A stretch of 64,000 nucleotides of DNA from Candidatus Omnitrophota bacterium (GTDB lineage: Bacteria > Omnitrophota > Gorgyraeia > VGKN01). The notes under the pieces were generated by a model that was not told the DNA's origin, ran no database searches, and was given only the letters and a program-made list of their open reading frames with translations. Both the position numbers and the translations under genes were made by a program. Positions within the stretch are counted from its first letter, which is position 1; the number at the start of each line of letters is the position of its first letter. The stretch spans positions 12,522 through 76,521 of the forward strand of contig JAGVOB010000004.1 in the NCBI GenBank assembly GCA_020052955.1, written 5' to 3'. Positions 7,301 to 63,081 of the stretch are shown one piece after another.

Positions 7301-10300
7301 GACTTTAGAAAGAGAGGCTGTAAGGAGAGAATGGGAGACTTTAGGCCTTTTGGTCAGGAGTCTTTCTAAGGATAGGGCACCTGCCGTTGTAAATTTAGGG
7401 GTTGATGTATATTTGACTCGCGAAGAAAAGGCCCAGCCTATTACTAGGACAATAGCCGATAACGGTCAAAGAATTTCCGGAACCCTCATAGGTGTTTTTA
7501 CGGACCAGGGGGTTAATTGGGCAAGATATACTCTTGCGCGCCAGTTGCGCGAAGAGGGTTTTGAGGTTTATATAATTGACCAGCATACAACACCGGAAGA
7601 GATTAAGATGGCTAAGGGAAAGGCTAAGGATTTAAAACATAATCCAGACCCAAAATGTATTTTCATCATGAACCCAAGAGGAAACCGCGGGGTCAACCTG
7701 GCCGGTACTGTCCCGGATCTGCTATGTATAGCAGCAGAGATACCCGACACTAAAGACGCCCTTATACAGTTACTCGGCCGTATCGGAAGGCAGGGCGTCC
7801 AATGTTTTGTAAAGGAGATATATTCCCTTAGCGATAGTGATTTGTTCAAGGAGCATAACAGAGACCTGTATAATAAATTTGTTAAAAGCGGCATGACAGG
7901 AGAGATTACAGGCAGGAGAAGGGATAGCGTTCTAAAAGGTATAGAGAGTGCGCAGGAGATAATGGCATTAAGGCAGTCCGGCTCGCGTATAGACCTCGGC
8001 AGGTTCTATGGGTTGGTTCATGAGACATCCCAGAGAAGATTCGCCATGGAGGAGGGTATAGGAAGGCGTTCTACAGGGGATTTGAGGAAATATATATTAG
8101 GTTTAATTGAAGAGGATATGAAGCCCGAGGTTAAGCTTAATATTTTAATTCTCTTAAGCCTCCTCAGCGAGGAAACAAAAGGGGCTGTTGTAAGTATTAT
8201 AGATGAAGCGATTATGAACGAGTGGAGTAAATATCTTTCAGGAATCCAAGACCTGATGAAAAAGATTCAACTTGCCCAGTTTAAAGGAAAAGATCCCTTT
8301 GGAGAGTTTGCTCTTGGAGCTGCGAGATTAAGAGATAGTTTTAAAAGAGAGGCTGCCCGCAATATTGTAATGGCTTTAGCAAGCGTACATCCAAAAACCC
8401 TTTTAGAGATAAAACAGAGATTAGATGAAGAAAAGAGGATAGAGAGGGAAGCGGCTGCCTATTTTGGGGAAAGGCAGGTTGCATCTGAAGGAATAACTTT
8501 TGCGCTTGAGCCTGCTATAACAGAGGAAAGAGTATTTAGTGCCGCCGGCATCCTTAAGGATTTAACATCTCTAGCGCTTGATAAATCAAGGGCACCACAG
8601 ACAGGGATGCTCCATATTAAAGTGGGCGATGCAGAATTTATCCAGATAGGAGGGCACCTGCAGCATGGTGCAAATGCACCTGTTGAGGTAGTCTCATATG
8701 GACAAAACGGCGATACAACAAGGCCTGTTATAATAGTAAAGCTGAATCGTCCGGAAGATGTGGATAGAAAATTTTTAGAAGATTTTCTGATTCCCGATTT
8801 ACGTATGAAAATTTCTCCTAATGCAAGGGTTATATTTGTGTATTCCGGAAGCGAGAAGGAATTTAAGGCAAAGAGATATGAGATAGCGAGGGTTTATTCG
8901 CTGGTAAACTCTATCTCCAAAAAACATACAAAACAGGCAATCACCGGTTATATATGGGACAAAACAAATGAATCTCCAGCGCTTGAGCAGATAACGCCTT
9001 ATGTTATTCCTGTTTTCGATAAACTTGCCCACTGGCTGTCAAGGCTTAAGACACGAGCTCCAACGAGAGAACAGCTTAAATATAATTTTGTTCAGGTTTT
9101 AAAGTCTATTAATAGGGAAAACATAAAAGAATTAATTACAAATATCACGACTTTCAGATGGCAGGATATAAATTCTCAGAGTTTATTTAAAGTCTTTGCT
9201 CCCTCCTTAATGGTTTTAGGTGCAGTATTGCTCCCGTTAAAAGTATGGCTCTCGGGAGCTGGTATATCCGGGATAGAGGCCTTAATTACACCCAAACCTG
9301 TCTTGACTCAACAGGCACAATATGCAGGGCAGAGTGCAGGGTTAAGCCCTGATGAAAGAAATGAGATTGCACAGGTTCCCGTAGGGCAGCAGGTTGCTCA
9401 AGAATCCGCAGTACCTCAAGCGGTTGTCAGGGCAGAGCAAGCGCCTGCTGTAGCGCCTCAAGAAACAACCGCTGAACAGGCTAAGCCCAGCATATTCCAG
9501 CAAGCTTGGGCTGGCATAACAGGTCTATTCGCTTTTACAAAGCAACCCACTCAAAGAACTCAAGAAACTCAATATACTCAAATTGGTTTACCCAGCGCGC
9601 CTTATCAAGAGGTTACAGTCGGCTCACCACCTCCACCACCTCCGGAAAAACTAAATCCATTCCAGCAGTTCTGGTCTTTTGTGACAACCTCTTTTAGCAC
9701 TAATACTAATATTGCTTCTGCCTACACAGGCGTACCTCAGGTTGAAACATATACGCGTGATTTGTTACCATGGGTCATATTTTTTGGCATATTTGGTAGC
9801 ATTCTTGGTGTAAGAAAAAGAGATTTAATTGGAAATTTCCTGCGCAATGGATTAACCAATATTCCTGGCTTTATCAAGATAGCAGTCCCTGTCCTTATAG
9901 TTATGTTTTTATTATCAAATTCTACGCCAACACAATCAGTAATTGCACCGCCCCCAGCCAAAGAAACAGTTGTGCCTGTTATTATACCTACTGTAGAGCC
10001 CATAAAAAATATGGCGGAACTGCCCGCTAAGATTGATGAATTTTACACTTCCACTGAGATTTCAAATTTATTACTTCCGCCCGCACTAATATCTCTACAA
10101 AATGTAGGTAATTTCTTAAAAGTGCTCGGAGGTACTTCTCTAAAAACTCCAGAGGAAATAGTTGCCCTTAAGCAGGCGCAATATCAGAGAGCCACAGGAA
10201 AGACAATGAGTGAAAGTAACCGAAGCCTTCTACTTGAGTTTGAAAGTAAGAGGAACGACCCAGCTTCTTCGCCCGAGGAGGTATTTCAGCTATACAGTAG

Positions 10301-13300
10301 AATCGCAGGGAATCCAGAAATTGTATTTGACTATGGAAGCAGTATGGCTATTTGGGTCGAATTTAGAGAGAGTTTAAACTCGCCGGATAGTGCGAAGATA
10401 AAAGTTCTTTTAAATTCAATTTTATCCATTCCTCAGTTAAGGGATTTTATAAATAAGAAAGACCCAGCCCTTATCAAAGATTTAGAGCTTGCCCAGAGGG
10501 TTCTTTCGGGAGAGGTAAAACTTACCCCTGAGGTATGTGAGGTATTAGAGCAACTCGGCGCTAAGCTCACCGATTTAGGGAGAGATAAAGATAATCATGA
10601 AGAATTACTCAGAATTGATAATGAATTAAATCAGGTTATTCTGGATACTTCAAACCAACTGTTAAGCAATATATCTGAGGAAGAGTTGGAGAATTGGTTT
10701 AAGGAGAGAGGAATTACTATTTTGTGGGATGTAAAGGAAGAAGAAAAGCAATTCAGTAAACTTTATTTAGCTACATTAATATCACTTTTCTCCCTGTCAC
10801 AGATTCCGCCAGAGAGATACAGGGACTTGAATATAAGGATTTCTAATGATAGCTTTGCCTACAACTTTAAGACCGATACCATGGAATTTAACTTTCAAGA
10901 TACATTTGAAGGCTGGTATCCGATAAGAAGCGGTTTAATTGATTCAAGGACCACATTAGTTCATGAGATTTCTCATCGCTGGGACCTTAAATATCTGTCT
11001 GAAGACCTAAGAGCCCAGTTTTATAATATCAGCTGGGACTTTGAGCAGGTAAAGCAAAGACAAAGAGAAAGGGATGAAGCAACTGAGAAAGGGGAGAGGG
11101 TTATAATTTTGGACAGCACGAGAGAAGACGCGAATTTAGACAGGGATTTTCTGTGGGGGCACATTGTTCAAGGAGAACTTTCAAGTGGGATGGCAGTTGA
11201 AGACATAGCAAGAACAGTACAGGTCTTATATACAAATCCCTCTTTTGCTGTTAATAATGCTATTGATAACATAACTGAGTATGGAGACCCTGATTTAGCC
11301 CAGAAGATATTTTTCGCTTATGGGTTTTATGGGAGTGTCTCCAACAATGAAATATGGATAATACGCAGTGATGGCGCACCAGTTAATGAGGATGATGGCG
11401 TATATGTTTTTAAGCGAGATGGCAAGGTGTTTGAGGTAAAGATTGAAAATGGCGTAGCTGCAAAACCGCGCGAATTACCCGCTGATTTTAACCCAAATCC
11501 TTTCATACAGAAGTTATTTTCTCAAGCAACACCTCCAAAGCAATTTAGTCTATTGGATGTTATCACGGTCCGTGGCGCCTCTGCGTATACAGGCACAGGG
11601 CAGACAGGAATATTTACGCCTGATGTTCTTGGGTTAGTTGTATTCTTAGGTATATTTGGCGGTATTATTGGCATAAGAAAAAGAGATTTAATTTTTGATT
11701 TTCTACGTCGTGGCTTATCTAATATTCCACGTATCTCGCCACGTCTTGTTATAACTATGCTGGTTCTGTTGCTTGTAGCTACCTCTTGTGCACCGGCACC
11801 AACCGGGGGAAATCCTCGGTCAATAGCAACTTTGGCTCCCCCATATGAAGTAACCGAGACATTAATACCACCTGTTAAAGCTACACCACTTCCAACCGCT
11901 ACACCTTATGCAACAGTAGGGGATTATTTATCCAAAAAAGGTTTACCCGGCACTGTTTCTGAAGCTGAACTATCAAGATTTACGAGCCAGTTATTTGAAA
12001 AGCTTCTTGAGGATATGTATAAGGAAGGAACGCTTCCAAAAGTAGCAGGTTACGAAAAGGTATATACAGAGTTTATTCAGACATTGCGTAAACCCGGCGC
12101 TGTTAAGGTTTCTCCAGATACAAATGTTTTCTATTATATTAACCTTCACTCAGAATTACTTAGTAACGGTGTAATAGCGACAGATATACTTGTAAATAGA
12201 GGTATTATCAGTCCCGATTTTCCGCTTGATTTATTAAAGGATACCTTAAGACATGAATTTGTGCATTTTGTAAATAAAGACCTTACAAGAACCAAACTTG
12301 TGCTTAATGAAAGACTGAGAGAAGCTCTTATAAAGGCATACTCATTGCCGATACCTCAGGATAAAGATAAGGACCCGGACGATAGAGGAATGTATTTATA
12401 TAATAATTTTATTGAGGTACTCAAAAAGGACCAGAATCTGAGAGAAGATATAAAACGCCTGATAGCGGTATTTGTAGAAGACGAATACCTTGCATATGTT
12501 CAGGAGGCAAAATATACGAAAGTGTTGAGTAGTTTGCATCCAGAGTTGCGTATGCACGGTTTCTTTAATCCTGATGGCACAGTAAGGGATGAGATGGGTT
12601 TAAGGCTATGGATACTTGAGAGAACCATCCCGTCTATAAATCCGCACCTTCATCAGTTAGCAAATGAGATAGAAAGAATAGAAGGCAGGGCAGATTACTA
12701 TCCAGTTCCTGCTGGCGAGAAGCCTTACCGAAGATATAGCTTTAGAGCAGCCCATCCCCTAACAGGAAAAGAAGTAATTATTTCTTACCCTCTTATTATA
12801 CCAAAGGTTCTAATCAAGGAAGAAGTAGGCGGTGTTAAAACAGCACTTGGTCTTCCAGAGGAGATATTCGGAGAGGTTGCTCCATATTTTAGAAGAGAAC
12901 AATTAAGAGGAAACTATTTTGAATATCTTAAGAATAAGACTTATAAGGATTACAGAATTCTAGCTCCAAAACCAACCTCTATGTTACCACAGGATACCCT
13001 TATTAGCTTTGCCGGAGATTTAGTTACAGGCTTCCTTACGGCTAATGCCGTCCAGGCCGCAGGCCCAACACTGACCTCGACTAAAGCAGAAGTTGATATT
13101 CCAGGCCTCTTGCTTGTAGGCGGTGCCTCCTTGTTAATAGCCATATTTGCAGTTGCAGTAGCAAGGCCCTTGGGCGGTATGTTTAAGTTTGTATTCAATC
13201 CCCTGCCGTTATTGGTTATCTTAGCAGGAATCCTGCTTGCATATTTAGCGTCTACCGCTACTGTTTATCCTGCAACCCTTACCCCGGAGCAGGCAGATAA

Positions 13301-16300
13301 AGCCGCAACGGTAATTGAAGAAGTATTAAGAGCCCCCACGCCTCCGGGCGCCCCGCAGAAAGACCCGAATAATGAGAAATTCCTCAAATGGCTTGCAGAG
13401 CAGTTAAAGAACTGGGCAGCCCATCCGGAAAGGGGACTTCCGCCTATAGGGGGTGGCCTTATACAGAAACTGGCAAGCCAGAATGAGCAGGCAAGAAAAC
13501 TGCTTGAGGATATTGTGTCCGGAAAGGTAAGGATAATAGTTGATATTAGTTCTGGCGCATCAGTTGAGAAGGCGGGCTTACATCTTAGGTCTATGGCTGA
13601 ATATGCCTTAAGAAATGGTGGTATAGTTGATGGCCAGCGTGTCATATTCTTAGGGATTGAGCCAAAGACAGGCCTGTTTGACGCAGCAGTAAGGCAATTG
13701 GCTAATACTGATAATGTAATCTTAATTCAGAGCGGGCTTGGCAAGCTTCCGCAGGAATTTAAAGGAATAGTATTACCTGACCTTAAATTCTGGAGAGTAA
13801 TTGTTACTGCGCCTGAGCCTGATATGCTGGCAAAGGATTTTGGATTACTTACAGACGCAGCAAGATTAGCGCAGGACAAGGTAATAGTAGTTACCGAATT
13901 TATGCCCACGATGAAAGCGCCTGTGCCAGGAGGGCTTGAAAGCACTCCTTGGTTAGATGCCCTTAAACAGACTTTATCAGCCTGGCAGTATAATCCTGTC
14001 AGAGTAACATCGGATAAAGTGCCTGCATTTATAAATTCAGATACATTTAGATGGTTACAGTTAGGCAAGAGCCAGGTTGAGGGGCTTCGCTGGGGAGGAG
14101 ATTACTGGTATCATGAATTTATGAGAAATGGCGCACCTTCAATTATAATCCTGCCATTTATTCTTGAGAGCCTCAAGGAACAGCCGGTTGTTCCAGCCAC
14201 TCCATCTATTCCTACCCCTGTTTCAGGCATGCCTGGCATATTATCGGGCGTAGGTATGGCATTATCCTTTGCATTATTGGGCGGGGTAATGAGCGTTGTA
14301 TTTATAAAATCTCCGAGGCGTGCAAGAAAGTTTATTATAGCCTTAGCAGGTGCGTTTACGTTAGCTATGCTCTCAGGCGCTCTGATGCCTACCTATGCGG
14401 CAGAAAGACAATTGGGCTTAGGCGTAGTTACTTATAAAGAGAGCGGCCTTGGAGACTATGTTAACAGGTTAAATGCAGATATAGGGGTAAAGGCATTAGA
14501 CCAGGTTGAGATTTTACCCAATACCCTATTTTCTTTTGACTCTTACGTTCAAGGATACATATCTGAGGGCCATCCCCTTAAGGGCGATAAAGAGAAATTT
14601 GGCGCAGGGCTTTGCGATGTAGCAACAGCCCTCAGGCGTTCAATAGAAAACAGTTATGGGCCTCCTGTTATCGTAGAACTTGGAGAAGATGATGTTAGTT
14701 CAGTTGCCTCCATTGAATTCCCTCAAAGGCTGGCTAATGCGACTGTAATCGGTTTTAAACTACCGCGATACGCGGCGATAAATCAGGAACAGGCAAATGC
14801 ATTACTGAGCAGGGTATTAGAAACTTATCCAAATGTAAAGATTGCGTATATATATACCTCTCACGGTGAGGAATTTTATAACGGAGAGGGCGCTTCCGTA
14901 TTTTTCTATGAGAATTTAACAGCGAGTTCACCGCGCCAGGATATCTGGCTCTTAACACAAGAGCCATACCTGATTGATACTAATAGCCCGGATGATACCT
15001 TGCAGGAATTAAACATAAGTTTAATTTCTAAGGCAGCGACAACAACCGAAGACGCGCTTGCCGAGGAAGAGCAATTCACCTTATCAACCCTCCTATCTTA
15101 TCTGACCACCTCGGAGATTAGAGCCCAGGGAGCAGGCGATATAATAACAGCAATTTTAGCCATAATCATTATGGCTGTGTTAGGCAGGGGAAGAATTCCT
15201 AAATTTATTAACGCAATACCCGCACCTTCCGGCAGAGGACGGTTTAATTTACGCTTACCTTCATTGCTAAGGGTTATTGTTTTAGCAGGTTTTGCTCTGG
15301 CATTAGCCGCCTGCGCAACTGCGACGCCACAGCCAACCCCGACACCAATAAGCCAGGCGGATATACCGTCCTATACCGAACGCGTACTTTCCCAGATTGA
15401 TGAGGGAAAATATCCTTTACTGCGGGCAGAGCTTAAGAGAGTAGGCGTAATCAATAACCAGATAGAATATCCGGTAATGGTTGAATATGGCTTAAGCGCT
15501 GACGGCAAAACAGCCACTATTAAGAGCGTTACGATAAATCCCGAGCTTTTCCTTAATATGCCGGCAAATATAAGGGAAAGCTATCTTCTGCACGAGGAAG
15601 AACATTTAAGCCCCGCGAGCCTTGATTTGGCTCGGGCTATTCAAATATTGAATAAACATTTCTTCGGCGGCATAGATTTATCCAAATCAGAAAAGGAAAT
15701 AATGGAGGAATTAAACCGAAGAATCGTAAACGACCCCAAAGAAAGAGAATTATTCAAGCATTACGTTGCCCTGCGCGTCCAATATGAATATCTAGGCAAC
15801 AGGAAGCAGTTTGATTACATACTTAATAATCGGATAGATATAAATAATCTGATAAGCAAAGAACAAAACCCCGGCGTTAAAGCGGTCTTGGGCAATATAA
15901 ATGAATTTATGCAGGTAGCCCAAATTGACAAGCCGCAAGCTCAGATAAACGAGAGAATCTTTAAAATAGCGATACTCAGAAACCCAATATGGAATGACCC
16001 ACGGCTAATTTATGATTTTACCCTGGCTATTGAGCAGATAGAGCATCCCGAGCTTAAGTTAGTACAATCCGGCGGCAGATGGCAGATGAGCCCGGCTTAT
16101 ATAGGCACTGACGGACTTCCCACTCTGCCGATATGGGATTATCTCACCATACCTGATTATTATTCGCCCGATATCATAAATACTCTCCAGCAGTCTGCAG
16201 TTGGCGTGCCCCACCTTGCAAGGCCCGTTTCGCCCGCTCTGACACAGCCCCTGACTGCAGGCCAGACAGGCATATGGGCAGTTATTATAGGTATATTATT

Positions 16301-19300
16301 TAGTATCTTATTTATAAACAATCCTATTACAAGAAGATTCAAATTAACTTGGTTAAAGCGCATTGCTATTTTAGGAGGTCTTCTCATTCTATTGACCGCC
16401 TGCTCAAGGCCACAGGCTTTACCAACTGCAACACCTACTATGACACAAACCGCAACCTATACCCAGACGTCCACAGCCACGTATACTTCAACGCCGACAC
16501 AAACATTCACACCGACATCAACTTCTACACCGACAGAAACGCCGACATCTACGCCGACCGAGACGCCGACCCAAACGCCAACTTTGACGCCTACAGCAAC
16601 ACCTTTACCTCTCCAGAATTTTTTAGCTGGTGGAACTAACATTGGAAGCTGGTTGATATTTTTCATAGGATTTGGCGTATTATCATTTGGCGTTATAGTC
16701 CTATTACATAAAACAATTAACCTCAATAGCATTGGGCTTACATTAGGAGGTTTAATAGTTGTAGCGCTTGGAGCTGTTGGTTTGTATTACAGCTCTCAAG
16801 TACAAAATTTCGCTAAGCCGGCAACTGCTATCCAAAAGGCAATAGACTCTACAACGCTTTTTCTTGTCAGGGCAGGCGTCTTTTTAACAGGAATAGAAAT
16901 AATGTATTTATCAGCTCTGGTTATCTCTTTCATCTTAAGTAAGATTAAAATATTAGGACCATTCGCGAAGGTTTTCAGCTTGATAGGTAAGATATTGAAA
17001 ATACCGCTAAAAGAACTGTTAAAAAAACCGGTACTAGGACTAATAACTCTCGCGATAATTATTCTCCCATTTCTTATGCGCCTTATTCCTTTGCCAACCT
17101 CTTATGCTATTCAGCAAGGAGACTTTCAACTGATAGAAACATTACTTTATCTCAGGCATCCGATAACAGTAACTGACAAAGATGCACTTATACAAATAAT
17201 AGGCAAATTATATGATGAGGGCAACGGCATCACGCGATTTTATGTTGCAGACCCTTCAACAGGAGATTTAAAAAGCGTTGACGCGTACTATCTGCTGGCA
17301 TATCCCGAATCAATTAATTTTACTCTAACCCGTGAAAAGGACAAGGACGGCTATTACATAAAGATACAGGAAAATAAGATACAAGAAATTACTCCTACTC
17401 CTCAAGGTTCTATCCCGGGTGCACCACACCTTGCAAGACCCACTATGCCAGAGAGCCAGGTTGCTGTCTCGGGGGTGAATACCCTGTCCACATTTATTAT
17501 AGGTATATTATCCCTTATCTTATTCACAAACAATCCTATTACAAGAAGATTCAAATTAACTTGGTTAAAGCGCATTGCTATTTTAGGAGGCATTCTCATT
17601 CTGTTGACCGCCTGTGCAACTGTGACTCCAGTGCCTCAGGAGGCGACAATACAGCCCGGAAGCCTTGAAGAACTGCAAGTGAGAATAATAGAAAACAGGC
17701 TGATTAATGAACTCTTATTCAATTATGAAAACCAGGAGGCAATAATACAGGTATCCCGGGAATATGAAGTTGACCCGCGATTGTTAACCTCTGTTGTTAT
17801 GATGGAGATTGCAAGCCGCGATCCAAGTGAAGATTTATGGGATAATTTAAAAGATGAAGCCAGGGAAATATTAAACAGAGACCTTGAGGCTACCTCTTTC
17901 GGTATAGGACAGATACGAATTGACACAGCGCGCGATATGCTCGGCTACCTAAAGGCAGAGAACAAGCTCGGCGATTTGGAACTCGGCTACCTGATACAGG
18001 AATCATTTTCGGATGAGAATATAGAGAAAATCCTTGAAAACGACCATGACAATATCTACATAGCAGGAAGGTATGTAAGATGGATTATAGATACATTAGA
18101 AGGCGCGGGCATAGAGGCAGATATTTACACCGTAGGATTCGGCTATAATGGTATCGGTCGGATAACAAACTTTGATGAATTTGAGCCGGAAGTGCAGCAG
18201 GCGATAAGTGACTACAGGGCCGAACACACAGAAATATTCAAGCTGGTATATAATGCCACATACTACGAGTCATTGCTGAAGATTAACTATCTGCCTTCAT
18301 GGTCGTCATATCTTCTGGGAGCGCCTTCTAGCGCAGGAGAATTTATCAATGGTTTCTATGATGCCGATTCAGTCGGTTTTAAGAGCTACTGGGCGGTTTA
18401 TGACGGCGTATATACAAAACCGCATAACATCCTTCCTGAATTTAGCGGTTTATACAATGCCTCCGTATTCGGCGAGGTGCGCTCAGGAGCCATTAACCTT
18501 CCTGACGGCAGGGTTCTTCAGATGTACGAAAACAGCATCCTTGAGCTTACCTCCAATGGCATAGTCAAGCAGTATCCGTATGCGGCGTATATTTTGCAGG
18601 GGATGCGCTCGGGATTCGACCAGGATTTCATAAATCATCTATCGGCATCGCCCAATGTGCCGGGGAAATTCTCTAATTTTATAGCCTCAAATAATATCGG
18701 GGCACAGCTGGGCTCGCTTCTTACTGACGCATTTGACATGAAAAACTTCCCAATTGACGGCGGTGAAAAATCCGTCAGGATACAATTCTTTGAAGGAGGC
18801 GTGCTCATAGCGGAGAAAAATTTGCTTGGAATTCCCGGGGACGTAAGGCTTGCCACGGTAGATTCGGTAGTCAGATATCTTGAGTCAGTGCACTCCTACG
18901 CATATGATATGCCGCCTTACGATCCTCTCTTAAAACCGCAGCCGGCTCCAACATCAACCCCGCTTCCAACGCCTGAGCTTGGGTCGTATATTGTGCTTTA
19001 TTCGGTTGGCCAGACAATAGAGGTGACTACAAAGCAAGCCATCATTGATGTTATTATGGCCACTAACCAGCGGAGGATAGCTCATCAAGAAGAGTCCATT
19101 CAGTATTTCTATCCCGAGACCCAGTGGACAGGCGAACCCTATGCCCATTATCTCGGGGATGTAACCAGAGAGAGCCTTGTCGAGCTTCTTAAGGATTTCC
19201 CTGACTCGGGATTTATTATGCGCCTTACACTCCAGCAGGGTGACGTCGCCCCGTTTATCAGGATAACCGAGATTGAAACAACAGGTGCTGTTTCGCCCGC

Positions 19301-25300: not shown

Positions 25301-28300
25301 CACTGCCTGTGCGCCTTCTTCAACCGCAACACCGGTTACGCCGACAGTTACATCTACCCCTGCACCAATACAACCTCCTGCTACGCTGCATCTTCCGACG
25401 CCTGCACCCGGTTCTTTTGGTTATGTATTTCAAGGCTATAGGGACGATAAATTATTTGAGGGGTATATGCTTACAGACGATGGTGTGCTTACTTTGCCGG
25501 GCGTTAATGGCAAGATATGGCATAGTATTCCTCAAACCAATGTAAGTGAGAATCATTTCCTGAACTTTACTGTAAAGACGCCTGATGGCAGCCACGGCGT
25601 GTATATAGAAATAAGAGACGCTGGTGGTAACCTTATAACCGGCGATAAGATATGGGTAGAATTCCCTGATACTTCTATAGAAGTATCAGGCGGTTTTGTT
25701 ACATATTCTATTAATCTAGAATCGCTTCTTACAGGCGACAATATGCAAGCCACTTCTTTTGGTTTCTTAAATCCGGATGGCATAATTCAATTAAAAGGAG
25801 AGCCCGCCTTTGGCGATACACCCACAGGTAAAATGCTTGTATATCACGAAGCGCTCTACGGCTTTAACTCAACGCCTATAACCGAAGCGCCTGTGGTCAA
25901 TCTTCTTTCAATATTTGAATTCATAGCGAGCGGTGTTGGGATATGGGCGTCTATTCCCGAGGGCGTTGAGATCGACCTTACAGCGCAGAATTACTTAGAA
26001 CTGACCGCAACAACAAATGACAGAAACACCACAGTCTGGTTAGAACTTGTGAATGAAAAGGGTGAATATCTGGCGACAAATGAGGAGGAACCCCAGGCCG
26101 GTATAGAAAGGATTAAAATCATCATTCCCAATACAGAGGGAGTCCCAAAAACTTTTTATTATGATTTAAGCGAGTGGCTAACAGCGGACTTGGCAGATTA
26201 TAAGGTGAATATAATCCGCATCTCAGATACGGTTACAGGCACAGAAGGCACAGAGATTACCGAATTTAAGTTTGTCTCGGAGCCTGCAGGGGAAGAAGTG
26301 TCTATTGAAATAGTGCCTAAGAAAAAGCCGGTGCCGCTACCTTATGAGTTTATAAACCTTAGTATTATTCCAAATTCTACTACCGGTACAAATTACTACA
26401 TCCAAAAATATGAGACTCCAGTAGCGGGTAATGATGTATATGTTTCTGGTGGTGGAGCCGGACTGAGTTATAACCTAGATGAAACAACAGGTTCATTTAT
26501 GGGCGGAGTGTTTAGCGTTAGGAATCCAGAAACATTTCAAAATTATGATTATCTTATGGTGGAGATCGGCGCTGATCATAATGGAGCCGCGCCTTTTATT
26601 GAAGTTAAACCTAATGATAAAGACACCTATTTTGTACGCGGTAACGTTTTGTATATACCAATGAGCGAGATAGGTGAATTGAAAACAATTACCCTTGGTG
26701 TGAGTTATTATTCAGTAGAAGGCGGAGGATCGGGAATTACATACGGCTCGGGCACTGTTGATTTCAGGATACGCGGAACCAATACACCACCCCCTATCCA
26801 GACCAGCCAGAGTTCTGCGCCCGGCTCAGCCCCCACCTCACAGCTACAACAGCAGCCGCCATACCTTGCCGGATTTTTGGCAACACCCGGCATGCTTGTA
26901 TTCCTAACCAGGATTAGAGACTGGCTAAGAAAGAATAAGAGGAGAGTGATATTAACGCTATCTATATTATCGCCTATTCTATTACTTGCAGGTGCTTATG
27001 CAGGAGCGCGTATCTATGGCAGTGGTTTCTCAATGGAGCATGCCATTCAACTACCAGCACCAATGCCAACGGTTGAGCAAGTCAATAATCAATGGCTGAT
27101 TAATGGCAGGGTTGCCTCTGATAAAACCCTTGAGGCAGTTGATATAAAGGCAATTGATACTGCTATTACAGAAGGCAAAGCCGACAGATTATTCTGGGAA
27201 GGAATATTCTCCAATTACCCAAAAGACGTCCCGGTATCTTATCTTATAACACCAGAGCGTATTAAAACTCTATATGAGACAAAGCAATTAGACCATCTCT
27301 TTAACGGCTTAAGGACACAGCCTGACTTACTCTACCGCTACCTCTCTGAAATCCCAGAAAATCAATTAACAGACTTTGCCAGATACTTTGCTACACTAAA
27401 ACCAGGCACAAGGCAACAGGTATTTGATATATTATACCATCGCCTAAGAAATGACCTTCTAATCTTAGAGAATTTAGGCACTATAAAACCCGGTTACACA
27501 GCTCTATTAAAACAGTCAAATCGTATAGAACTTTTATATGCCACAATGGTTCAGATGCTCAATAGGATAAGGCCTATTGTTGCAGATAGACTTATAAAAG
27601 AAGGGCTTACTGAGGATCAGATTCAGGAGGGTATTAAGGAAAGCCGTATAACAAGCATGCCATTTGAAGATATTATTGTGAATAAAAACTGGATTACAAA
27701 GGAGAAACTAGATGAAATCAGAACCACTACTTTACCAGACGGACCTGTAGCTCCTATGCCAGATATGGGGTTGACAATGAGTGAATCAGAAGTAAGCTTA
27801 TATAAAGTATTTTCTGATGTGATGCAGGAATATAGAAGTAGCGGTTATACAATTATATTGCCTGCTCCAAAAAATGTTAATGTTAACGAAATTAATGGAT
27901 TGATTGAATACTATACTACAAATAGGCCAAGAAGCGGTTATTTCTTGCAAGAAAACAAGTCTGGGTTGCTCTTAGAATGGGTTATGAAACAGACAAATCC
28001 TAACAATCCATTAAGTCATATGGTGAGCGATAGAGAACTCTTAAGAGAAGCTATGCGCTTACATATTGAACCAGACGGGTCAATAGATCTATTCAAGGTT
28101 GTAGCAACTATAGGACATTACTATAAAGCTATGGCGAGAAACCCAAGTCTTATACTTGGTGGTGCTGAGGCTCGTGGACTAGAAGATGGCGCTACATTCA
28201 TTGGCGTACGCCATCTACCCATACTTTTGATAGCAACACTTGATCCAAAAGTCAATTATACAGTTGACGAAAATGGACAGCCTGTTCTATTTTGGCGGCC

Positions 28301-31300
28301 AGTAGACATCGATGGCAATGATCGGATTCCGTTAGGACAGCGTGTTGGCATATCATGGCATTCCATTGAAGATGATCTTTATCATTCTTGGAACTTTTTA
28401 TTAACTGCTTTATATGTTGACGCAAAATCCTTGCCCGAAATAAAAATTGATTTTGAAAACTTTATTCAAAGGTTTCCTGAAAGCTACCGCCATTTAAAAA
28501 ATACTTCATTCGTAGAAGTTTTCACTACTACGATAAAGCTATTATCATATGAAAGGAAAGAAGGCTTTTCTAATGAGACAGGTAGTATGATGATGGGAGA
28601 TCTTCCAATATTGTATAAGTATGTACGAATTTTAAGATTAGATGAGATTGGCATGTTAAATTCTTTTAGTTTTGGCACAGGTGAATTGGGAAAAAGTGAA
28701 GAAAAAACAAAGCTACTGTTTGCTGAGGTTGGGCGGGATATATATCAACAATCTGGAATAATGTTTGTAGATAGAAAAGAATCGTTAATTCCTGAGTCTG
28801 ATGTATTGAAAGATATTAAAACACTAGAAGGTGGCATATCTCTTGAAGAGCATAATGATATATTTGTTATTCAAGAATGGAAGATGTCAGGTGAACCTAC
28901 TATTGAAGAATGGGCTTTCAGCGATCCAAAACATTTTTGGGAAATTGTTGAAAAAATTAGAGTAAACAGCGAACAGGCTACAGAGAAACATGTTAATCTT
29001 GATTTTCCTTTCACTTTAGAAGATGTGCAATTGCGCCTTGAAAATAAAATGCTAAATGTCTCAGATTTTATTACCTATGGGTCGCCATATTTAAAAGAAA
29101 AAATCGCATCTACTACAAAATCAGTGGAGCTACTTGATTTATTAACAGTTGATGCAGATGTTAAATTTGTTGTTATAAACAACCCAAATACTTCACTTGA
29201 GACGTTAATGCGATTATCCTCCGATCCTGATAGAGAAGTGAGAAGATCTATAGCGATCAATACAGCAACTACTCCTGCGATGTTAATAGAGTTGACATCT
29301 GATTCAGAAGCCAATGTTAGGTTTGTCGCTGCTTTTAATGAAAACGCACCGCTTGTTGCCGTTGCTCTCGCAGTTTTTCTGAAATCAGATGAATATATGA
29401 GCCTTAACTATAGCGCCACATATGATAATAGGCCAACAATAGATGAAATGTTTCAAAATCGTTACTTTGGTCTTGGAACTCATATGGTTAAGATATATAA
29501 CCAATGGAATGGAATTTTACCAGGCGAGAGGCTTCCATCTGATCTAATCGAGAAATTAATTCAAGCCGAACCACTCTTTAAACGCGCAGTTGAAGAATTG
29601 CCGGATAAAACCTGGGATGAGGTTCCTATAACAGGAGATATCAATAAGGATGTAACCGCATTAATCAATGCTGTAGAAACAGCACTAAATACCAAAGCAC
29701 AAGCACCCGAACTACCCACCCTAACCTCACAGCTACAACAGCAGCCCCCATACCTTGTAGGCTTTTTGGCAACACCCGGCATGCTTGTATTCCTAACCAG
29801 GATTAGAGACTGGCTAAGAAGGAATAAGAGGAGAGTGATATTAACGCTATCTATATTATCGCCTATTCTATTACTTGCAGGTGCTTATGCAGGAGCGCGT
29901 ATCTATGGAAGTGGCTTCTCTCTTGAACATGCCATTCAACTACCAGCACCAATGCCAACGGTTGAGCAGATAGATGGTAAATGGATTATGAATGGAAGGG
30001 CTGCCTCTGATAAAACCCTTGAGGCAGTTGATATAAAGGCAATTGATACTGCAATTACAGAAGGCAAAGCCGACAGATTATTCTGGGAAGGAATATTCTC
30101 CAATTACCCAAAAGACGTCCCGGTATCTTATCTTATAACACCAGAGCGCATTAAGGCTCTATACGAGACAAAGCAATTAGACCATCTCTTTAACGGCCTA
30201 AGGACACAGCCTGATTTACTATACAGATATTTCTCTGAAATTTCAGAAAGCCAAATGACAGACTTTGCCAGATACTTCGCCACCCTTAAACCCGGTACAA
30301 GACAGCAAGTATTTGACATATTATACCATCGCTTAAGAAACGACCTACTTATCTTAGAGAATTTAGGCACTATAAAACCCGGATATTCTACCTTACTAAC
30401 ACAGTCCAACCGTATGGAAATCCTCTATGCTACAATGACCCAAATGCTAAATAGAATGACTCCATTGCCTGTAGGTGAACTCCCAGACGGCCCTGTTGCT
30501 CCTATGCCTGTTATGGGTCTTACAAGAGAGCGTTCTATAGATAACCTCTACAGAACATTTGAAGAGGTTATCACAGACTATAAAAATCAAGGCTATACCA
30601 TAACACTGCCTACACCTGATAGCGTTAATGTTTCTGAAGTGGTTGGGTTAATTGGATACTACAACAGCCTACCTGATTTTTCTTTGAGAGATAATCAATC
30701 TGCGCAGCTCCTTGAGTGGGTTTTAAAACAGACTGACCCAGAGAATCCATCTGCGCATATGGTAAGTGATAGAGAGCTCTTGATAGAAGCAATGCGATTA
30801 TCCGCTGGGCCAGATAGAACAATAGATTTATTTAAGGTTATAGCGACCATCGGGCATTATTATAAAGCAATGGCTAGAGCCCCATATTTAATCCTCGGTG
30901 GCCCTGAAGCTCGTGCTAATGAAGATGGTCCAACCTTTATAGGCAGACGTCACGACCATATGCTTTTGGTCTACTCTTTAGACCCAAAAGTTGAATATAG
31001 TGTGGATGAAAATGGCCAGCCGGTCTTACGCTGGAGACCAGTGGATGCGGATGGTAATGATTGGATTCCGGAAGGTGAACGTGTTGGAATTAACTGGCAT
31101 GCCATTGATGATAATCTTTATCATTCTTGGAATTTTATTCTCACAAATCTATATATCGAGGCCAAGTCTCTTAAAGAAATCGGTAACGACTGGGAGAGTT
31201 TTTATCAAAGATACCCATCCTCAAATGAATATAAATCTATGAAAAGCACTTCCTTCTTAGATGTTTTTGTTGCGGGTATAAGAATGTTACAAAACCCAGA

Positions 31301-34300
31301 ATCCGCCGGTAAGGTAGGTACTGCAAATGAACAAGATCTCCCATTGTTTAATAAGTATTTACACCTTGCCGGTATAGATGAGTTTTTCTTACGGTACTTT
31401 ACTTTTGGGTTATTTGGATATATAGAACGAGGCGGTAGTGAACCGCTAACTAAAGCAATATTTGCAGAAGTTGGAAGAAGAATCTATCAGAAGACAGCAG
31501 ATGGTGAATCCGACGTAACTTTGGTACAACATCCTGAAATATTAGTTTCTGGCACCTGGAACATTAGAACTATCGGAGGCGGTAGATCGCTTGCAGAGTA
31601 TAACGATAGCATTATAAGAGAATGGAGGGTGTTGGGTAAACCTTCAATTATCAAATGGGCTTCAGATGATCCTGAAAGATTTTGGGAAGTTGTTGCAGCA
31701 ATTGATCAACTTACTCTATTGGCGAAGTTAACAAATGCCAGTATTAACCCTCCTTTTACTGTAGAAAGTGTAATATCGGCTATTGAGGAAGGGACTTTAG
31801 TAAATGAGTATCCCTCATTTAACCATTGGAAGCAAGATATTTTATCTTATCCGCCAGAGGTGCTCGATATATTAGCCTTAGATACTGACCCCGAGGTGCG
31901 AAGAATCGTAGCAGAAGATATAGAAGCTTCACCCAAGGCATTAGGATTTTTAGCCTTGGATTCAGATCGTGAAGTGAGGATATATGTAGCAGCTAATAAG
32001 GGCGGTAATGTTCCGGCTGACGCATTAATGTTGTTGATTAGGGATAAGGATCCTTTGATAAGCGGGCATGCGATATATAATCAAAATACTCCTCTTGCCG
32101 GTCTTGTCCTTGGAATGTCCCTTGTAAGTGATAATAGTCAGATTAAAATTAAAGATATAGAATCCCAATTATCACAAAGATTTAATGGTTTAGGTACTCA
32201 TATATTTATTGTCTATAGCCGGTGGAATGATATTTCGCAGGAACAGGAAATCCCACCAGAAGTAATCAACCAACTTCTTGCGGCCGAACCTCTCTTTAGG
32301 CGCGCAGTTGAAGAATTGCCAGATAAGACCTGGGATGAGGTTCCTATAACGGGGGATATTAATAAGGATGTAACCGCATTAATCAATGCTATTGAAACAG
32401 CATTAAATACCAAAGCACAAATACCTGAGCTACCAGGTTTAGCGCCAACACAGCCCGCTGTACCTGCGCAGTTACCCACCCCCACCTCACAGCTACAACA
32501 GCAGCCCCCATACCTTGCCGGCTTTTTGGCAACACCCGGCATGCTTGTATTCCTTGGCAAAATTAAAGACTGGCTTAGGAGGAATAAAAGGAGAGCGATA
32601 TTAACAGCAACAACCATAGGATTATTACTCTGTTTTGGAGCAGGTGCCACTTATTTTATAGTTAACCGTACGCAACAGCCTGTAGTTACGACAACCTATA
32701 CAATAACAGATCTGGATAGTTTGCTGGTTAAATTAAACAGCACAAACCGCATAGTAAGACAGCAAGCCTCTGAGGAGATAGCGCGGTTAGCATATGATAA
32801 TCCTCAAGAGGCAATAAATATTATTAACAGGCTTGAGAGATGGTCTATAGAGGTTCTAAATACCCCTGATAAAAAATTGAAATGCTATCCTGAACTTTTG
32901 GATGCCATAGTTAAAATCGGAACCCATATATATAGTGATAAGGAACTGGATAGACAAATCACAGAGGCAGCATTCGCAAAGCTCTTAGAGTTCTTTGATA
33001 CTGAGAATGAACAACTTGCAGGGTTTGTCCGTGACGCGATACTCAATTTTGCAAACAGGGTTAATACGCCAGAGGTGTTGAGCAAAACAGTAAAGATTGA
33101 TGTTTTAAGAGGAAATCTTGAGCGTTCAGACAGCGGTCTTAGGGCTATATACAATTTATTGGGGACATCAAAGAATGACAGGGTAAGAGAGATAATTTTA
33201 AAGATGTTAGAAGAACTACCTACAAGAGCACCCATTTTTGACCCGGCACATACAGGAGGTTTGTGGTTTAGGTATCTTTTTGAGGCATTTATGCCCATAA
33301 TTTCAGATGGCAGAAATAAACAGTTAAGCGACCTTGCTGCGAGGGTATTGGTGCAGGTGACAGTATCCCAGATTAAATCTACCGAAACCCATGGTTTTTC
33401 AGAGGGCGATATTTATCTTGTTACAAACGGCTATCTTATAGGAACAGGTCTTCCTGGAGGGATTAGCGATTACAGAAACTTCTTTACACCCATTACAGGT
33501 GAAATTGACCAGGTAAGGGCTAAGGGCGACAAGTTTACAGAACTGAGACTTCTCTGGGTGCTTGAGCAGTTAGGGATAAAAGTTATTATAAGCGGGATAG
33601 AACGAACAGATAATCAGGGAAGGATTATTGCGGAAAACCAGGTTCAGGGATTAGTGGAGTATCTAAATAAAAACTATCCTGCTGATTCAGGTAATTTAAC
33701 CATTACTAAAGTTGTGGCGCATAGAACACTTATTGCAATGACAGGAGGAAGACTTCAGAGATATGTTGAGACAGCGCAGAACCTGCCGGGCGTGTGGGAA
33801 AGAAGAACCGAGTACAACAATCTAACCTCTTCCATTGGAAACTCAATATCAGTGCTTGAACAGGCGTATAATTCCACCGACCCGGTTCTTCATGAATTGG
33901 CAGTGGTATCTATGTTAGATTTGCTTAAGAATGACTTTACCACTCCAAGGGAAGTTTATGAACCGCTGATAAGACTTTTAGTAGAAAAAGCTAATAAGGG
34001 CGATACAGACGCAAGCAAGATATTAATTGCCGTTGTAAGCGATGCAGATATAGGATTTGAAATTGTTGAACCTCTCTTTAGAATCCAGGGCGTAAACATA
34101 GGTGTTAGATCCGGCTTCCAACCTACTGACACATATGTAAGGAGATTTACGAATGAAAGGGTTGATGAAAAGTTGAGAGCCCAGTATGCCCAGATGGCCC
34201 AAGGCGATATTAATTATATAGCGCTGGGCAATTTATTAGAAGTCAAAAATGTGCTTTCAGAACAGGGAGATATTGCCAATGCCTCTGAGAGCTTAACGTT

Positions 34301-62689: not shown

Positions 62690-62870
62690 TCATAGGCGAT
62701 AAGCCATAAGCACAGAATTAGAGGGCAAATGAAGCCTTCCATAACTCCTAGGGCTATTATCCCTCCCTTTGCTCGGGATGGTGAGCGTTAGGTGAACCAA
62801 AGGGTGCGGTTTTCCCCTCGTTTAGCTCGAAACTCTGCTGGCCGCGAATGTTAAATGGGTAATTTATAGT
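62690..62870 (+). other. GC-enriched island inside otherwise AT-rich intergenic DNA (possible small structured RNA or terminator-like element; unassigned)
   Basis: ...gggctattatccctccctttgctcgggatggtgagcgttaggtgaaccaaagggtgcggttttcccctcgtttagctcgaaactctgctggccgcg. Contains the inverted repeat CCCTTTG...CAAAGGG followed by GCGGTTTT. Confidence 0.15.
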
Positions 62871-63081
62871 AAGAATAAACAAAATTTAGATGTTTGGGTA
62901 TTGTAATTTTATTTTTGTTGGGTATACTTTTAGTAGTGGATAGTAGGAAATAAAGGTTATTTTTTTTAGTGACTTAAAAAGGGTGTTTAAAATTATTAAA
63001 AAATGTTTTTAATTAATGATATTTTATATGTACTTTCTAACATATTATAATAACATTTTCCTTAATTAAAGGGTGTAACAA

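Follow-up and report, generated by a model that had tools for sequence, protein, structure and literature searches.

The giant protein and its domains

The window, a 64,000-nucleotide stretch of a Candidatus Omnitrophota bacterium contig, contains one giant open reading frame (Table 1). Its N-terminal part carries SecY-like and SecA-like domains, together with a weak Pfam match to SecA_SW at aa 2240–2343. Strong domain matches are spread across the frame. A domain search found no C39 peptidase, S8 peptidase, dockerin or TSP3 domain in the giant protein at E <= 0.01. Cysteine is rare, at 27 of 20,408 residues (0.13%). The exported region holds ten cysteines, five of which are the lipobox cysteines described below.

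Between nt 9762 and 32666, modules of 250–1140 aa are separated by 13 pairs of hydrophobic helices (hairpins, each with TM1, a basic loop and TM2) and one four-helix cluster, the helices having been called by hydropathy on two scales. The original prediction had counted at least 13 such junctions; we find 13 hairpins, with all the quoted motifs in frame in one ORF. The loops it quoted are present as RKRDLI..FLR.GL.NIP (H1 and H2), NNPITRRFKLTWLKR (H6 and H8), TRIRDWLRKNKRR (H12–H14) and RGRIPKF..RGRFNLR (H5). TM1 of H12–H14 is only marginally hydrophobic. An AF2 model of H5 has helices on both TM segments, at low confidence (pLDDT 44.6).

Table 1. Features of the giant open reading frame. Positions are those of the window; aa numbers are those of the giant protein.
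Feature	Position (nt)	Strand	Description
Giant ORF	1359..62585	+	20,408 aa; single uninterrupted frame from translation; encloses all other features
SecY-like channel domain	3993..4919	+	aa 879-1187; fused into giant protein; Pfam PF00344, E 3.6e-36
SecA DEAD-like motor domain	5769..6308	+	aa 1471-1650; Pfam PF07517, E 2.7e-9
Single TM	9183..9239	+	aa 2609-2627; after SecA-like part; hydropathy
Hairpin H1	9762..9920	+	TM1 LLPWVIFFGIFGSILGV, loop RKRDLIGNFLRNGLTNIPGFIK, TM2 IAVPVLIVMFLLS; short core, no Cys; H2 paralogue
Hairpin H2	11625..11789	+	Lipobox VATS-C, Cys 3477 at nt 11787-11789; P/T-rich linker nt 11790-11924
Hairpin H3	13107..13259	+	19-residue TM2, no lipobox
Hairpin H4	14256..14387	+	Loop KSPRRARK, no lipobox
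Hairpin H5	15141..15314	+	29-aa loop RGRIPKF..RGRFNLRLPSLLR; lipobox LAA-C (ALAAC), Cys 4652 at nt 15312-15314; then ATATPQPTPTP
Hairpin H6	16266..16403	+	Loop PITRRFKLTWLKR; lipobox LTA-C (LLTAC), Cys 5015 at nt 16401-16403; ~70-aa T/P linker nt 16404-16628
4-TM cluster	16653..17078	+	aa 5099-5240; K-rich inner loops
Hairpin H8	17475..17615	+	Near-identical DNA copy of H6 loop and TM2 (repeat family D4); lipobox LTA-C (LLTAC), Cys 5419 at nt 17613-17615
Tse3-like muramidase / lytic-transglycosylase-like stretch	17748..18092	+	aa 5464-5578; module after H8; weak: PDB 3wa5, E 0.005; Pfam PF22115, E 0.0014, below cut-off
Hairpin H9	19395..19547	+	Preceded by KQFSLLD..AQARTPGVLPTLTS; no lipobox
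Hairpin H10	21603..21776	+	Loop KRLRDRLQGRVKSRTLAN, no lipobox
Endo-beta-1,2-glucanase (GH162-type) homologous domain	22665..24149	+	aa 7103-7597; PDB 6imu, E 6.5e-102; marker of extracytoplasmic side
Hairpin H11	25182..25310	+	Loop ELNKKSLKY; lipobox LTA-C (VLTAC), Cys 7984 at nt 25308-25310; T/P linker nt 25311-25418
Hairpin H12	26865..27002	+	Weak TM1 YLAGFLATPGMLVFL, loop RDWLRKNKRR, 19-aa TM2 ending AYA; no lipobox
Hairpin H13	29754..29891	+	Tandem-repeat copy of H12
Hairpin H14	32514..32666	+	Third copy of H12; Cys 10425 inside TM2, not a lipobox
Further hairpin	43056..43274	+	aa 13900-13972; same kind, beyond the span originally predicted
DUF3131 glucanase-related stretch	43533..43826	+	After aa 13900-13972 hairpin

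Membrane topology

Lysine and arginine make up 68 of the 193 residues in the hairpin loops (35%), and aspartate and glutamate 8 of the 193 (4%). In the 15-residue outer flanks of the hairpins, lysine and arginine account for 18 of 390 residues (4.6%), against 10.4% across the protein. The positive-inside bias is very strong in every loop. Since the loops are enriched in Lys/Arg to this extent (35% against roughly 10%), a cytoplasmic position is expected for them and an outside one for the modules. TM counts are even throughout, the 4-TM cluster included, which would put every large module on the same side.

A VanW hint and an HExxH-containing module occur among the large modules. The identities that can be assigned (the GH162-type glucanase, the Tse3-like muramidase hint and the VanW hint) fit an extracytoplasmic location, and module content and topology are consistent with each other. 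Only two stand-alone homologs of modules were found (P0001 and P0002), both with an N-terminal signal peptide; in P0002, the homologous module is likewise preceded by a P/T linker. Membrane anchoring at each junction, as predicted, is well supported by the helices on both hydropathy scales, the loop charge bias, the even TM parity, the module identities and the signal peptides of the homologs. We infer the orientation of the hairpins and their use of Sec.

Internal lipobox sites

Five TM2 helices end in a lipobox followed by a T/P linker. The sites are those originally proposed, VATSC (aa 3477), ALAAC (4652), LLTAC (5015 and 5419) and VLTAC (7984), and all are in frame. Upstream of each cysteine lie a basic loop and a hydrophobic core of 13–14 residues. 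Thr, Pro, Ser, Ala and Gln make up 0.40–0.83 of the 30 residues after each lipobox Cys versus 0.29 protein-wide. The five sites are the only matches in the giant protein to the PROSITE PS51257 core and G+LPP-like patterns. The likeness of these TM2 helices to lipoprotein signal peptides, part of the original prediction, is borne out by all sequence features but one, the N-terminal position.

The pattern is not random. A relaxed lipobox pattern matched five times; 2000 shuffles gave 0.57 matches on average and never as many as five. Cysteine occupies 5 of the 86 positions whose upstream context resembles a signal peptide (binomial P = 1.3e-7, or ~6e-6 if the sites are counted as four independent ones). 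Core length also separates the two kinds of TM2: 13–14 residues with a lipobox versus at least 19 without (Mann–Whitney P = 0.0015, H1 excluded). H1 is the outlier among the eight of 13 hairpins without a lipobox, with a Cys-less TM2 whose short core (~13 residues) resembles that of its lipobox-bearing paralogue H2. None of the n-regions of the five lipobox signals offers a start codon preceded by a Shine-Dalgarno sequence, so these signals can only act internally.

Part of the repetition stems from internal duplication, which yields the hairpin families {H1, H2}, {H6, H8} and {H12, H13, H14}. The hairpins thereby reduce to about 9–10 independent families and the lipobox sites to four. Within the internal repeats, conservation or homogenisation is greatest in the hairpin DNA; H6 and H8 share 129 nt at 91% identity between unrelated flanks, a recent copy. 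The proposed check of the cysteines in paralogs came out mixed. H6 and H8 both retain the Cys, but in the older pair H1 reads LLSNS where H2 reads VATSC, and H1 either lost its Cys or never carried one. The H12–H14 family has no lipobox Cys. Retention in H6 and H8 does not count as independent evidence because their DNA is nearly identical, and searches returned almost no homologs in which orthologous conservation could be followed. Evidence for the lipobox Cys from conservation is weak.

Comparison with known signal and sorting systems

Sec/SPII lipoprotein signals (PS51257; Lgt, LspA, Lnt) share with the giant-protein sites a basic n-region, an uncharged core of 13–14 residues and a lipobox [LV]-[AT]-[AS]-C. 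At +2 the sites likewise have Ala or Ser, and the Cys leads into a disordered Thr/Pro tether. They differ in being internal (residues 3477–7984) and in having another TM helix 8–29 residues upstream and no usable start codon. Canonical lipoprotein signals are N-terminal.

A parallel in layout is found in the membrane polyproteins of viruses (Flaviviridae and similar), where stop-transfer helices also alternate with internal signals and helix 2 of a hairpin is the signal peptide for the ectodomain that follows. There, host signal peptidase cleaves at the outer end of helix 2, a feature that the giant protein would share only if cleavage occurs. The viral systems are eukaryotic and use type I signal peptidase at the ER, whereas the giant protein is bacterial and its signals are of the lipoprotein type. 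The two are unrelated in sequence, and the analogy is one of mechanism only.

C-terminal sorting signals (LPXTG/sortase, PEP-CTERM/exosortase, IPTL-CTERM) have the tripartite layout of motif, TM1 and basic cluster in common with the hairpins. Short recurrent motifs (SAYTG, LPTLTS, A-x-A-x-P/G) sit 4–25 residues upstream of TM1, but they are not common to all hairpins. Ten junctions were scanned with NCBIfam sorting-domain models, and none matched, even at E <= 10. Unlike sorting signals, the segments in the giant protein are internal.

Proposed mechanism and alternatives

We lean towards a mechanism in which stop-transfer helices alternate with internal signals, five of them of the SPII type, with the lipobox cysteines lipidated and the chain likely cleaved. 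The hairpin region would be the extracytoplasmic middle of a giant multi-enzyme protein that threads through the membrane, one of the Omnitrophota/PVC giant-gene type. The single TM helix after the SecA-like part would make the first in-to-out crossing and start the extracytoplasmic chain. Each TM1 would then act as a stop-transfer helix, halting translocation of the preceding module and returning the chain to the cytoplasm, where the Arg/Lys-rich loop would remain. TM2 would be an internal start-transfer signal that re-engages Sec for export of the next module; the machinery may be the protein's own, namely the SecY- and SecA-like domains of its N-terminal part. Through this alternation, the glucanase, the muramidase-like, the HExxH-containing and the other large modules would all be held on the outer face of the cytoplasmic membrane via flexible Pro/Thr linkers. 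The Cys-less TM2s with cores of at least 19 residues would be permanent anchors. The five short-core TM2s (four independent) would be Sec/SPII lipoprotein signal peptides in all but position. They are likely substrates of Lgt, which is predicted to diacylglycerylate the lipobox Cys, and possibly of LspA, which would then probably cut before each of these cysteines. Processing by SPII is plausible, and we infer lipidation and cleavage at the lipobox sites.

The hairpins might instead serve only as anchors, permanent pairs of stop-transfer helix and signal anchor in an intact 20,408-aa chain, whose lipobox cysteines are unmodified or are lipidated but uncut as extra anchors at five junctions. 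The topological evidence is the same for this reading, and the eight hairpins without a lipobox, with their long TM2 cores (H1 excepted), and the Cys-less H1 suit it. We also know of no natural bacterial case in which LspA acts on a signal behind another TM helix. We nevertheless regard it as rather unlikely. At 13–14 residues, the cores are on the short side for stable spanning but usual for SPII signals that are cleaved, Cys hardly occurs in the protein yet stands exactly at four independent lipobox positions, and the lipoprotein pathway normally proceeds from diacylglyceryl modification to cleavage by LspA. Improbable, in our judgement, is a purely historical origin, in which adjacent genes for exported proteins were fused in frame and each junction preserves a fossil C-terminal anchor (TM1) and a fossil signal (TM2 with lipobox) that is now unused. 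Each junction does look as if a C-terminal anchor, basic tail included, had been joined to an N-terminal signal, two modules have stand-alone secreted homologs, and H1 has no conserved Cys. At 0.13% Cys, however, unused cysteines should be gone, yet lipobox Cys make up half of the ten in the exported region; n-region, core length, lipobox and linker are intact at all five sites, and it is the hairpin DNA that is best conserved or homogenised within the repeats. A fusion origin is in any case compatible with continued function.

That the whole pattern is an artefact, with chance motifs in an assembly chimera or pseudogene, has very little probability. Repeats make the assembly of giant genes error-prone (10.1101/2023.11.21.568195), and the ORF does contain internal repeats, but 20,408 stop-free codons are impossible by chance, the domain matches across the frame are strong, related MAGs carry giant ORFs in tandem that share the N-terminal leader, and the lipobox statistics exclude chance. 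Start codons within the loops, by which one long mRNA would yield separate ordinary lipoprotein precursors, are effectively refuted. The n-regions do look like precursor N-termini, for example (L)NKKSLKYLLL.. in H11. However, H2, H6 and H8 have no ATG, GTG or TTG 12–40 codons upstream of the Cys, the few candidate codons in H5 and H11 all lack a Shine-Dalgarno-like sequence, and the frame is continuous and stop-free.

Relation to other giant proteins

The Omnitrophota giant ORFs of Seymour et al. 2023, West-Roberts et al. 2023 and a 2026 preprint share great length, many TM helices and large, poorly conserved, predicted extracellular modules with the present protein, as well as a SecA_DEAD domain and carbohydrate/cell-wall hydrolase content. 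At 20,408 aa, ours falls short of their 30,000-aa 'giant' class. The related MAGs with tandem giant ORFs, which include an Omnitrophota MAG, were retrieved through the leader. A SecY-like domain is also present in one related giant ORF (L005). In another, from Omnitrophota (L006), an internal SPII signal with a perfect fit, KTLRKLFFLLVISGFVLFLLTGC|APTPTVS, lies at residue 2647 of the open frame. The 50 residues preceding this lipobox contain no TM1, and the outer loop after it spans only 20 residues, so the architecture is not that of the hairpins described here.

Multi-TM giant proteins are already known, and we found no description of internal lipoboxes in the literature. The Omnitrophota giant-ORF papers (PMC10066038; 10.1101/2023.11.21.568195; 10.64898/2026.06.07.730766) do not mention lipoboxes, paired-helix junctions or fused SecY, and one of them treats signal peptides called internally on later chunks as artefacts and suppresses them. 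The papers give the cleavage points as unknown, and cleavage of giant proteins is treated as an open question (10.1101/2023.11.21.568195). If cleaved as proposed, the present protein would be a membrane-bound polyprotein of up to six pieces, five of which would begin with a lipidated Cys and, except for the last, run as far as the next TM1 and end in it. The five sites would be the first concrete candidates for the lipid anchoring and cutting of such giant proteins.

Architecture of the giant open reading frame

The stretch from nt 1359 to 62585 is one open reading frame of 20,408 codons. The span in which repeated membrane hairpins had been predicted, nt 9760–32650, is aa 2801–10431 of this frame, and both strands of the span hold no other feature of note. 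Hydrophobic segments were scanned by Kyte–Doolittle hydropathy, by uncharged hydrophobic runs, and by a crude Hessa-scale sum; all three agree. The segments are paired, with short loops between the partners and long non-hydrophobic modules on either side. There are 13 such pairs (hairpins H1–H6 and H8–H14, each consisting of a first helix, TM1, a basic loop, and a second helix, TM2) and one four-helix cluster at aa 5099–5240. The modules between hairpins are 250–1140 aa long. An extra pair of the same type lies beyond the span, at aa 13900–13972. Across the 20,408 residues, the crude scan gives 99 hydrophobic segments, a few of which are likely false positives. Giant proteins of the Omnitrophota type are likewise encoded by very long single frames, are rich in TM helices, and have large regions predicted to be extracellular.

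The 13 loops carry 68 Lys/Arg and 8 Asp/Glu in 193 residues (3–7 Lys/Arg per loop). The outer flanks, 15 residues beside each helix, hold 18 Lys/Arg in 390; Lys/Arg make up 10.4% of the whole protein. This is a positive-inside signature and it recurs at every junction. A single-sequence AF2 model of aa 4585–5020 (H5, the next module, and H6) is of low confidence (pLDDT 44.6) and was used for helix positions only; its helices fall exactly on the four predicted TM segments. The quoted loop sequences and lipoboxes were all recovered at their places on translation of the frame. The predicted topology of "beads on a membrane string" is well supported by the hydropathy scans, the loop charge bias, the even helix counts, and the module identities; a topology of this general kind is already known for the protein class. 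The observation is real and highly non-random.

Five internal lipoprotein-type signals

The TM2 helices of H2, H5, H6, H8, and H11 end in a lipobox, and after every lipobox Cys comes a stretch of approximately 15 to 70 residues rich in Thr/Pro/Ser/Ala. The claim that such helices look like the N-terminus of a lipoprotein but are internal was confirmed for these five by pattern, core length, linker, and position. The Cys lie at residues 3477, 4652, 5015, 5419, and 7984, outside the range of about residues 15–35 of an N-terminal signal. The 20 residues preceding the core contain 2–4 Lys/Arg at all five sites, a positively charged n-region; the same stretch has two acidic residues at H2 and a single one at H11, and is free of them at H5, H6, and H8. 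The uncharged h-region, from the last Lys/Arg to the Cys, is 13–14 residues at each site, within the expected range of about 7–22. The strict lipobox [LVI][ASTVI][GAS]C is present at four of the five sites and the core of the PROSITE lipoprotein pattern PS51257 at all five. The PS51257 core and G+LPP-like patterns find these five sites and have no further match in the 20,408 residues. As far as sequence can tell, all the sequence determinants of a lipoprotein signal peptide are present in the five putative internal signals.

The protein has 27 Cys (0.13%) in all; ten are within the hairpin region, and half of these are lipobox Cys. The relaxed lipobox pattern has five matches, with 0.57 expected, and none of 2000 shuffles reached five. 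A signal-peptide-like upstream context occurs at 86 positions, five of which are Cys (binomial P = 1.3e-7). Since H6 and H8 are copies, the independent sites number four, for which P is still approximately 6e-6 by hand calculation. The TM2 core is 13–14 residues in the lipobox class versus at least 19 in the non-lipobox TM2 helices (Mann–Whitney P = 0.0015, with H1 left out; its TM2 has no Cys yet a short core of around 13 residues, as in its paralogue H2). From this difference, the five lipobox TM2 helices form a distinct class and are not ordinary TM helices that chance to end in Cys. Most Cys outside the lipoboxes belong to the SecA-like part and the C-terminal part, both presumed cytoplasmic.

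Separate initiation at these sites, which would make each signal a true N-terminus, was also considered. Three of the five n-regions lack any start codon and the others lack a Shine–Dalgarno sequence, so internal initiation is excluded.

Short motifs occur 4–25 residues upstream of some TM1 helices: KQFSLLD..., followed by A-x-A-x-(T/P)-G (ASAYTG, AQARTPG, VQAAGP), and LPTLTS. They may flag a further site, on the outer face, for sorting or processing. When the 13 pre-TM1 regions were aligned, no convincing shared motif emerged, and the short motifs are not in all hairpins.

Internal copies of the hairpins

Chunked self-BLAST and DNA repeat searches identified three duplicated hairpin families: {H1, H2}, {H6, H8}, and {H12, H13, H14}. 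Among these paralogues the hairpins are more conserved than the modules, and no DNA is better conserved between internal repeats than the segments that encode hairpins (89–92% identity). This suggests that hairpins may have been copied as cassettes or by gene conversion. In H6 and H8, the loop and TM2 share 129 nt at 91% DNA identity, and the flanks are unrelated on either side. In the tandem repeat H12–H14, the best-conserved part is the hairpin and the approximately 130 residues directly after it. Third-codon identity is 0.8–1.0 around the hairpin versus 0.3–0.5 in the module body. Such near-saturated identity points to probable homogenization or recent copying rather than purifying selection alone. 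None of H12, H13, and H14 has a lipobox. H1 and H2 are an older pair, with 42% identity over approximately 130 residues and a conserved TM1 and loop.

Conservation of the lipobox Cys among paralogues gave a mixed answer. The Cys is kept in H6 and H8, but these are a recent DNA copy, so the LLTAC they have in common adds no independent evidence for conservation. It is present in H2 (VATSC) and absent from H1 (LLSNS).

Sidedness and identity of the modules

The SecA-like part (aa 1471–2343) must be cytoplasmic. One TM helix (aa 2609–2627) lies C-terminal to it, and from this helix to aa 10436 the crossings are all even-numbered. All modules are therefore on one side, and the charge bias places the loops inside. 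The module identities agree with an outside location: the modules include a close homolog of an endo-β-1,2-glucanase, a weak resemblance to the Tse3 muramidase catalytic domain, and a hint of VanW (see table). Three modules with HExxH motifs but no other annotation, after H1, H2, and H5, may be metallopeptidase-like; no family match was found for them.

A HMMER scan of aa 4280–5016 against 1.84 billion representative proteins gave two weak matches only. Both are stand-alone proteins of ordinary size with N-terminal signal peptides (P0001 and P0002). In P0002 the homologous HExxH module is also preceded by a Pro/Thr linker, and the position aligned with the HExxH motif reads HEANH. PDB sequence searches with the modules after H1 and after H2–H4 gave no match. 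Word-index searches (queries of 5000 aa and 1900 aa, and an alignment of the H1/H2 junctions) found no homologs. These negatives are uninformative because the GH162-like module in the first query has a PDB homolog (E = 1e-101) that was likewise missed. A scan of genome contigs with aa 4560–5440 found no related sequence, and the metagenome scan returned only one locus (L001), an irrelevant low-complexity Thr/Pro match.

A uridine-kinase-like domain and a cytidylate kinase, both ATP-using, and an HD domain lie C-terminal of the last multi-TM blocks. HEAT repeats are also present in the C-terminal part. Nucleotide-metabolism domains and surface hydrolases are an odd mix in a single polypeptide.

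Positions of features in the giant ORF and its surroundings
Feature	Position	Details
Tandem-gene segments	nt 1–927, 1359–1526, 63082–64000	Upstream frame, leader, next gene
Intergenic DNA motifs	nt 1126–1169, 62869–62912	Short, common to the intergenic regions
Leader to SecY-like TM1	nt 1401–3926 (aa 15–856)	SecY-like TM1 at aa 840–856
SecY-like domain	nt 3993–4919	PF00344, E 3.6e-36; directly upstream of SecA_DEAD
SecA_DEAD domain	nt 5769–6308 (aa 1471–1650)	PF07517, E 2.7e-9
HExxH motifs	nt 10900–11000, 12400–12480, 15640–15700	HEISH after H1, HEFVH after H2, HEEEH after H5
Pre-TM1 short motifs	nt ~11500–11620, ~19290–19390, ~13050–13100, ~29700–29750	H2, H9, H3, H13
VanW hint	aa 4372–4425	E 0.11
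Tse3 muramidase catalytic domain	aa 5464–5578	Weak resemblance
Endo-β-1,2-glucanase	aa 7103–7597	Close homolog, PDB 6imu, E 6.5e-102
Hairpin-coding repeat DNA	nt 16279–16407, 17491–17619	H6/H8, unrelated flanks
Hairpin-coding repeat DNA	nt 26824–27129, 29713–30018, 32473–32605	H12–H14
Nucleotide-metabolism domains	nt 56778–58046, ~60627–60848	Uridine kinase/PRK E 2e-17; cytidylate kinase E 1e-24; HD E 1.5e-6

Fused SecY/SecA-like domains and related genes

The N-terminal part of the frame contains a SecY-like domain and a divergent SecA_DEAD domain, the latter being a trait of Omnitrophota-type giants. A SecY-like domain (E = 2.7e-13) is likewise found in a related giant ORF (locus L005, from approximately nt 11680). 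The fused SecY–SecA translocon appears to be undescribed, because the paper on giant genes reports SecA_DEAD domains only, with SecYEG not syntenic with these genes (10.1101/2023.11.21.568195). The leader resembles an N-in signal that carries an AYA↓SP site, yet has Glu and Asp inside its core. In the SecY-like TM1, the basic flank is the N-terminal one. The two are in topological conflict; approximately 800 Ala/Thr/Pro/Val-rich residues lie between them.

Giant genes are in tandem here. The upstream frame is open to the window edge, and an exact-match search with its product gave no entry. The next gene has the same 55-residue leader. The leader consensus MxDWQTG..LVIAEVFLFTSIDLP..ASP.EKL.PP is 64–76% identical across MAGs, and the rest diverges to approximately 30% or less. 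A search with the leader gave five loci (L002–L006) in three MAGs, of which two carry the label uncultured Planctomycetia and one the label Candidatus Omnitrophota. At each locus, long open frames follow one another on a single strand, and most run off the locus ends; the loci carry 10-kb flanks, which stop short of their hairpin regions. The related Omnitrophota giant ORF in L006 has a perfect internal SPII signal, KTLRKLFFLLVISGFVLFLLTGC↓APTPTVS, at residue 2647 (nt ~17880–17980). Internal lipoprotein-type signals are therefore not unique to the window ORF. No TM1 is found in the 50 residues preceding the L006 signal, and after the signal come an outer loop of only 20 residues, the next TM, and a starch-synthase-like domain of cytoplasmic type. 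Its context therefore differs from that of the window hairpins.

Proposed processing and comparison with known systems

On the simplest account, by classical topogenic-sequence logic, TM1 would act as a stop-transfer helix, the basic loop would be kept in the cytoplasm, and TM2, a signal inside the chain, would start export again for the module that follows. To export modules of several hundred residues, known bacteria require a SecA-type motor. Here, the fused SecY/SecA-like translocon could be used in cis. According to the published mechanisms, Lgt, which lipidates the Cys, and LspA (signal peptidase II), which cleaves before it and is inhibited by globomycin, recognize the membrane-embedded core and the lipobox at the outer leaflet. 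We know of no demonstrated requirement of either enzyme for a free N-terminus, and on these grounds we consider lipidation of the five lipobox Cys likely, if not strongly so. Cleavage at these Cys is somewhat less likely, close to an even prospect. It would give up to six pieces, five starting at a lipidated Cys; each of the five except the last would stay tethered C-terminally by the next TM1. More doubtful is the complete scheme, which we offer tentatively: a bacterial membrane polyprotein threaded by its own fused SecY/SecA-like translocon and cut by Lgt/LspA at internal lipoprotein signals into several lipid-anchored enzymes.

C-terminal sorting signals (LPXTG, PEP-CTERM, IPTL-CTERM) have a similar arrangement of TM1 and basic tail, whereas the segments in the window are internal. 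NCBIfam sorting-domain models had no match in ten junctions at E ≤ 10. Giants of the Archaeovorin and Dockerin classes have a C39 or S8 peptidase, or dockerin/TSP3 domains; none of these was found in the window ORF (Pfam, whole ORF, E ≤ 0.01). In a flavivirus-type polyprotein, each ectodomain has the second helix of the hairpin before it as its signal peptide, which the host's signal peptidase cleaves. This is the closest functional analogue known to us, and the window ORF, if cut, would be a prokaryotic counterpart.

Published descriptions of giant Omnitrophota ORFs report many TM helices and extensive extracellular regions (PMC10066038; 10.1101/2023.11.21.568195). The latter paper proposes cleavage mediated by C39 or S8 peptidases and states that the cleavage points are unknown. 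A 2026 survey (10.64898/2026.06.07.730766) ran DeepTMHMM on 916 long proteins; four were chunked, and signal-peptide calls on non-first chunks were downgraded as artefacts. Lipoboxes, lipoproteins, and hairpins go unmentioned in these papers, and full-text searches returned no relevant account of a lipoprotein polyprotein or an internal lipobox. As far as we could determine, the internal lipoprotein signals are new; we infer their use as signals from the sequence.

Significance

Omnitrophota commonly carry giant ORFs of tens of thousands of codons, which have been linked to predation on other microbes (PMC10066038; 10.1101/2023.11.21.568195). Whether such a protein stays as one chain or is cut up is stated to be open (10.1101/2023.11.21.568195). 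Internal canonical lipoprotein signals are precise, falsifiable candidate cleavage sites that bear on this acknowledged question, and they name the candidate enzymes, Lgt and LspA. Annotation pipelines are also affected, as one large survey drops internal signal-peptide calls on later chunks (10.64898/2026.06.07.730766). If true, the proposal would define, for the first time, cleavage sites in giant proteins of the Omnitrophota type and allow rational splitting of these proteins for structure prediction. It would widen the substrate range of the lipoprotein pathway to internal signals and would explain how many exo-enzymes are made in fixed proportions and held on the cell surface.
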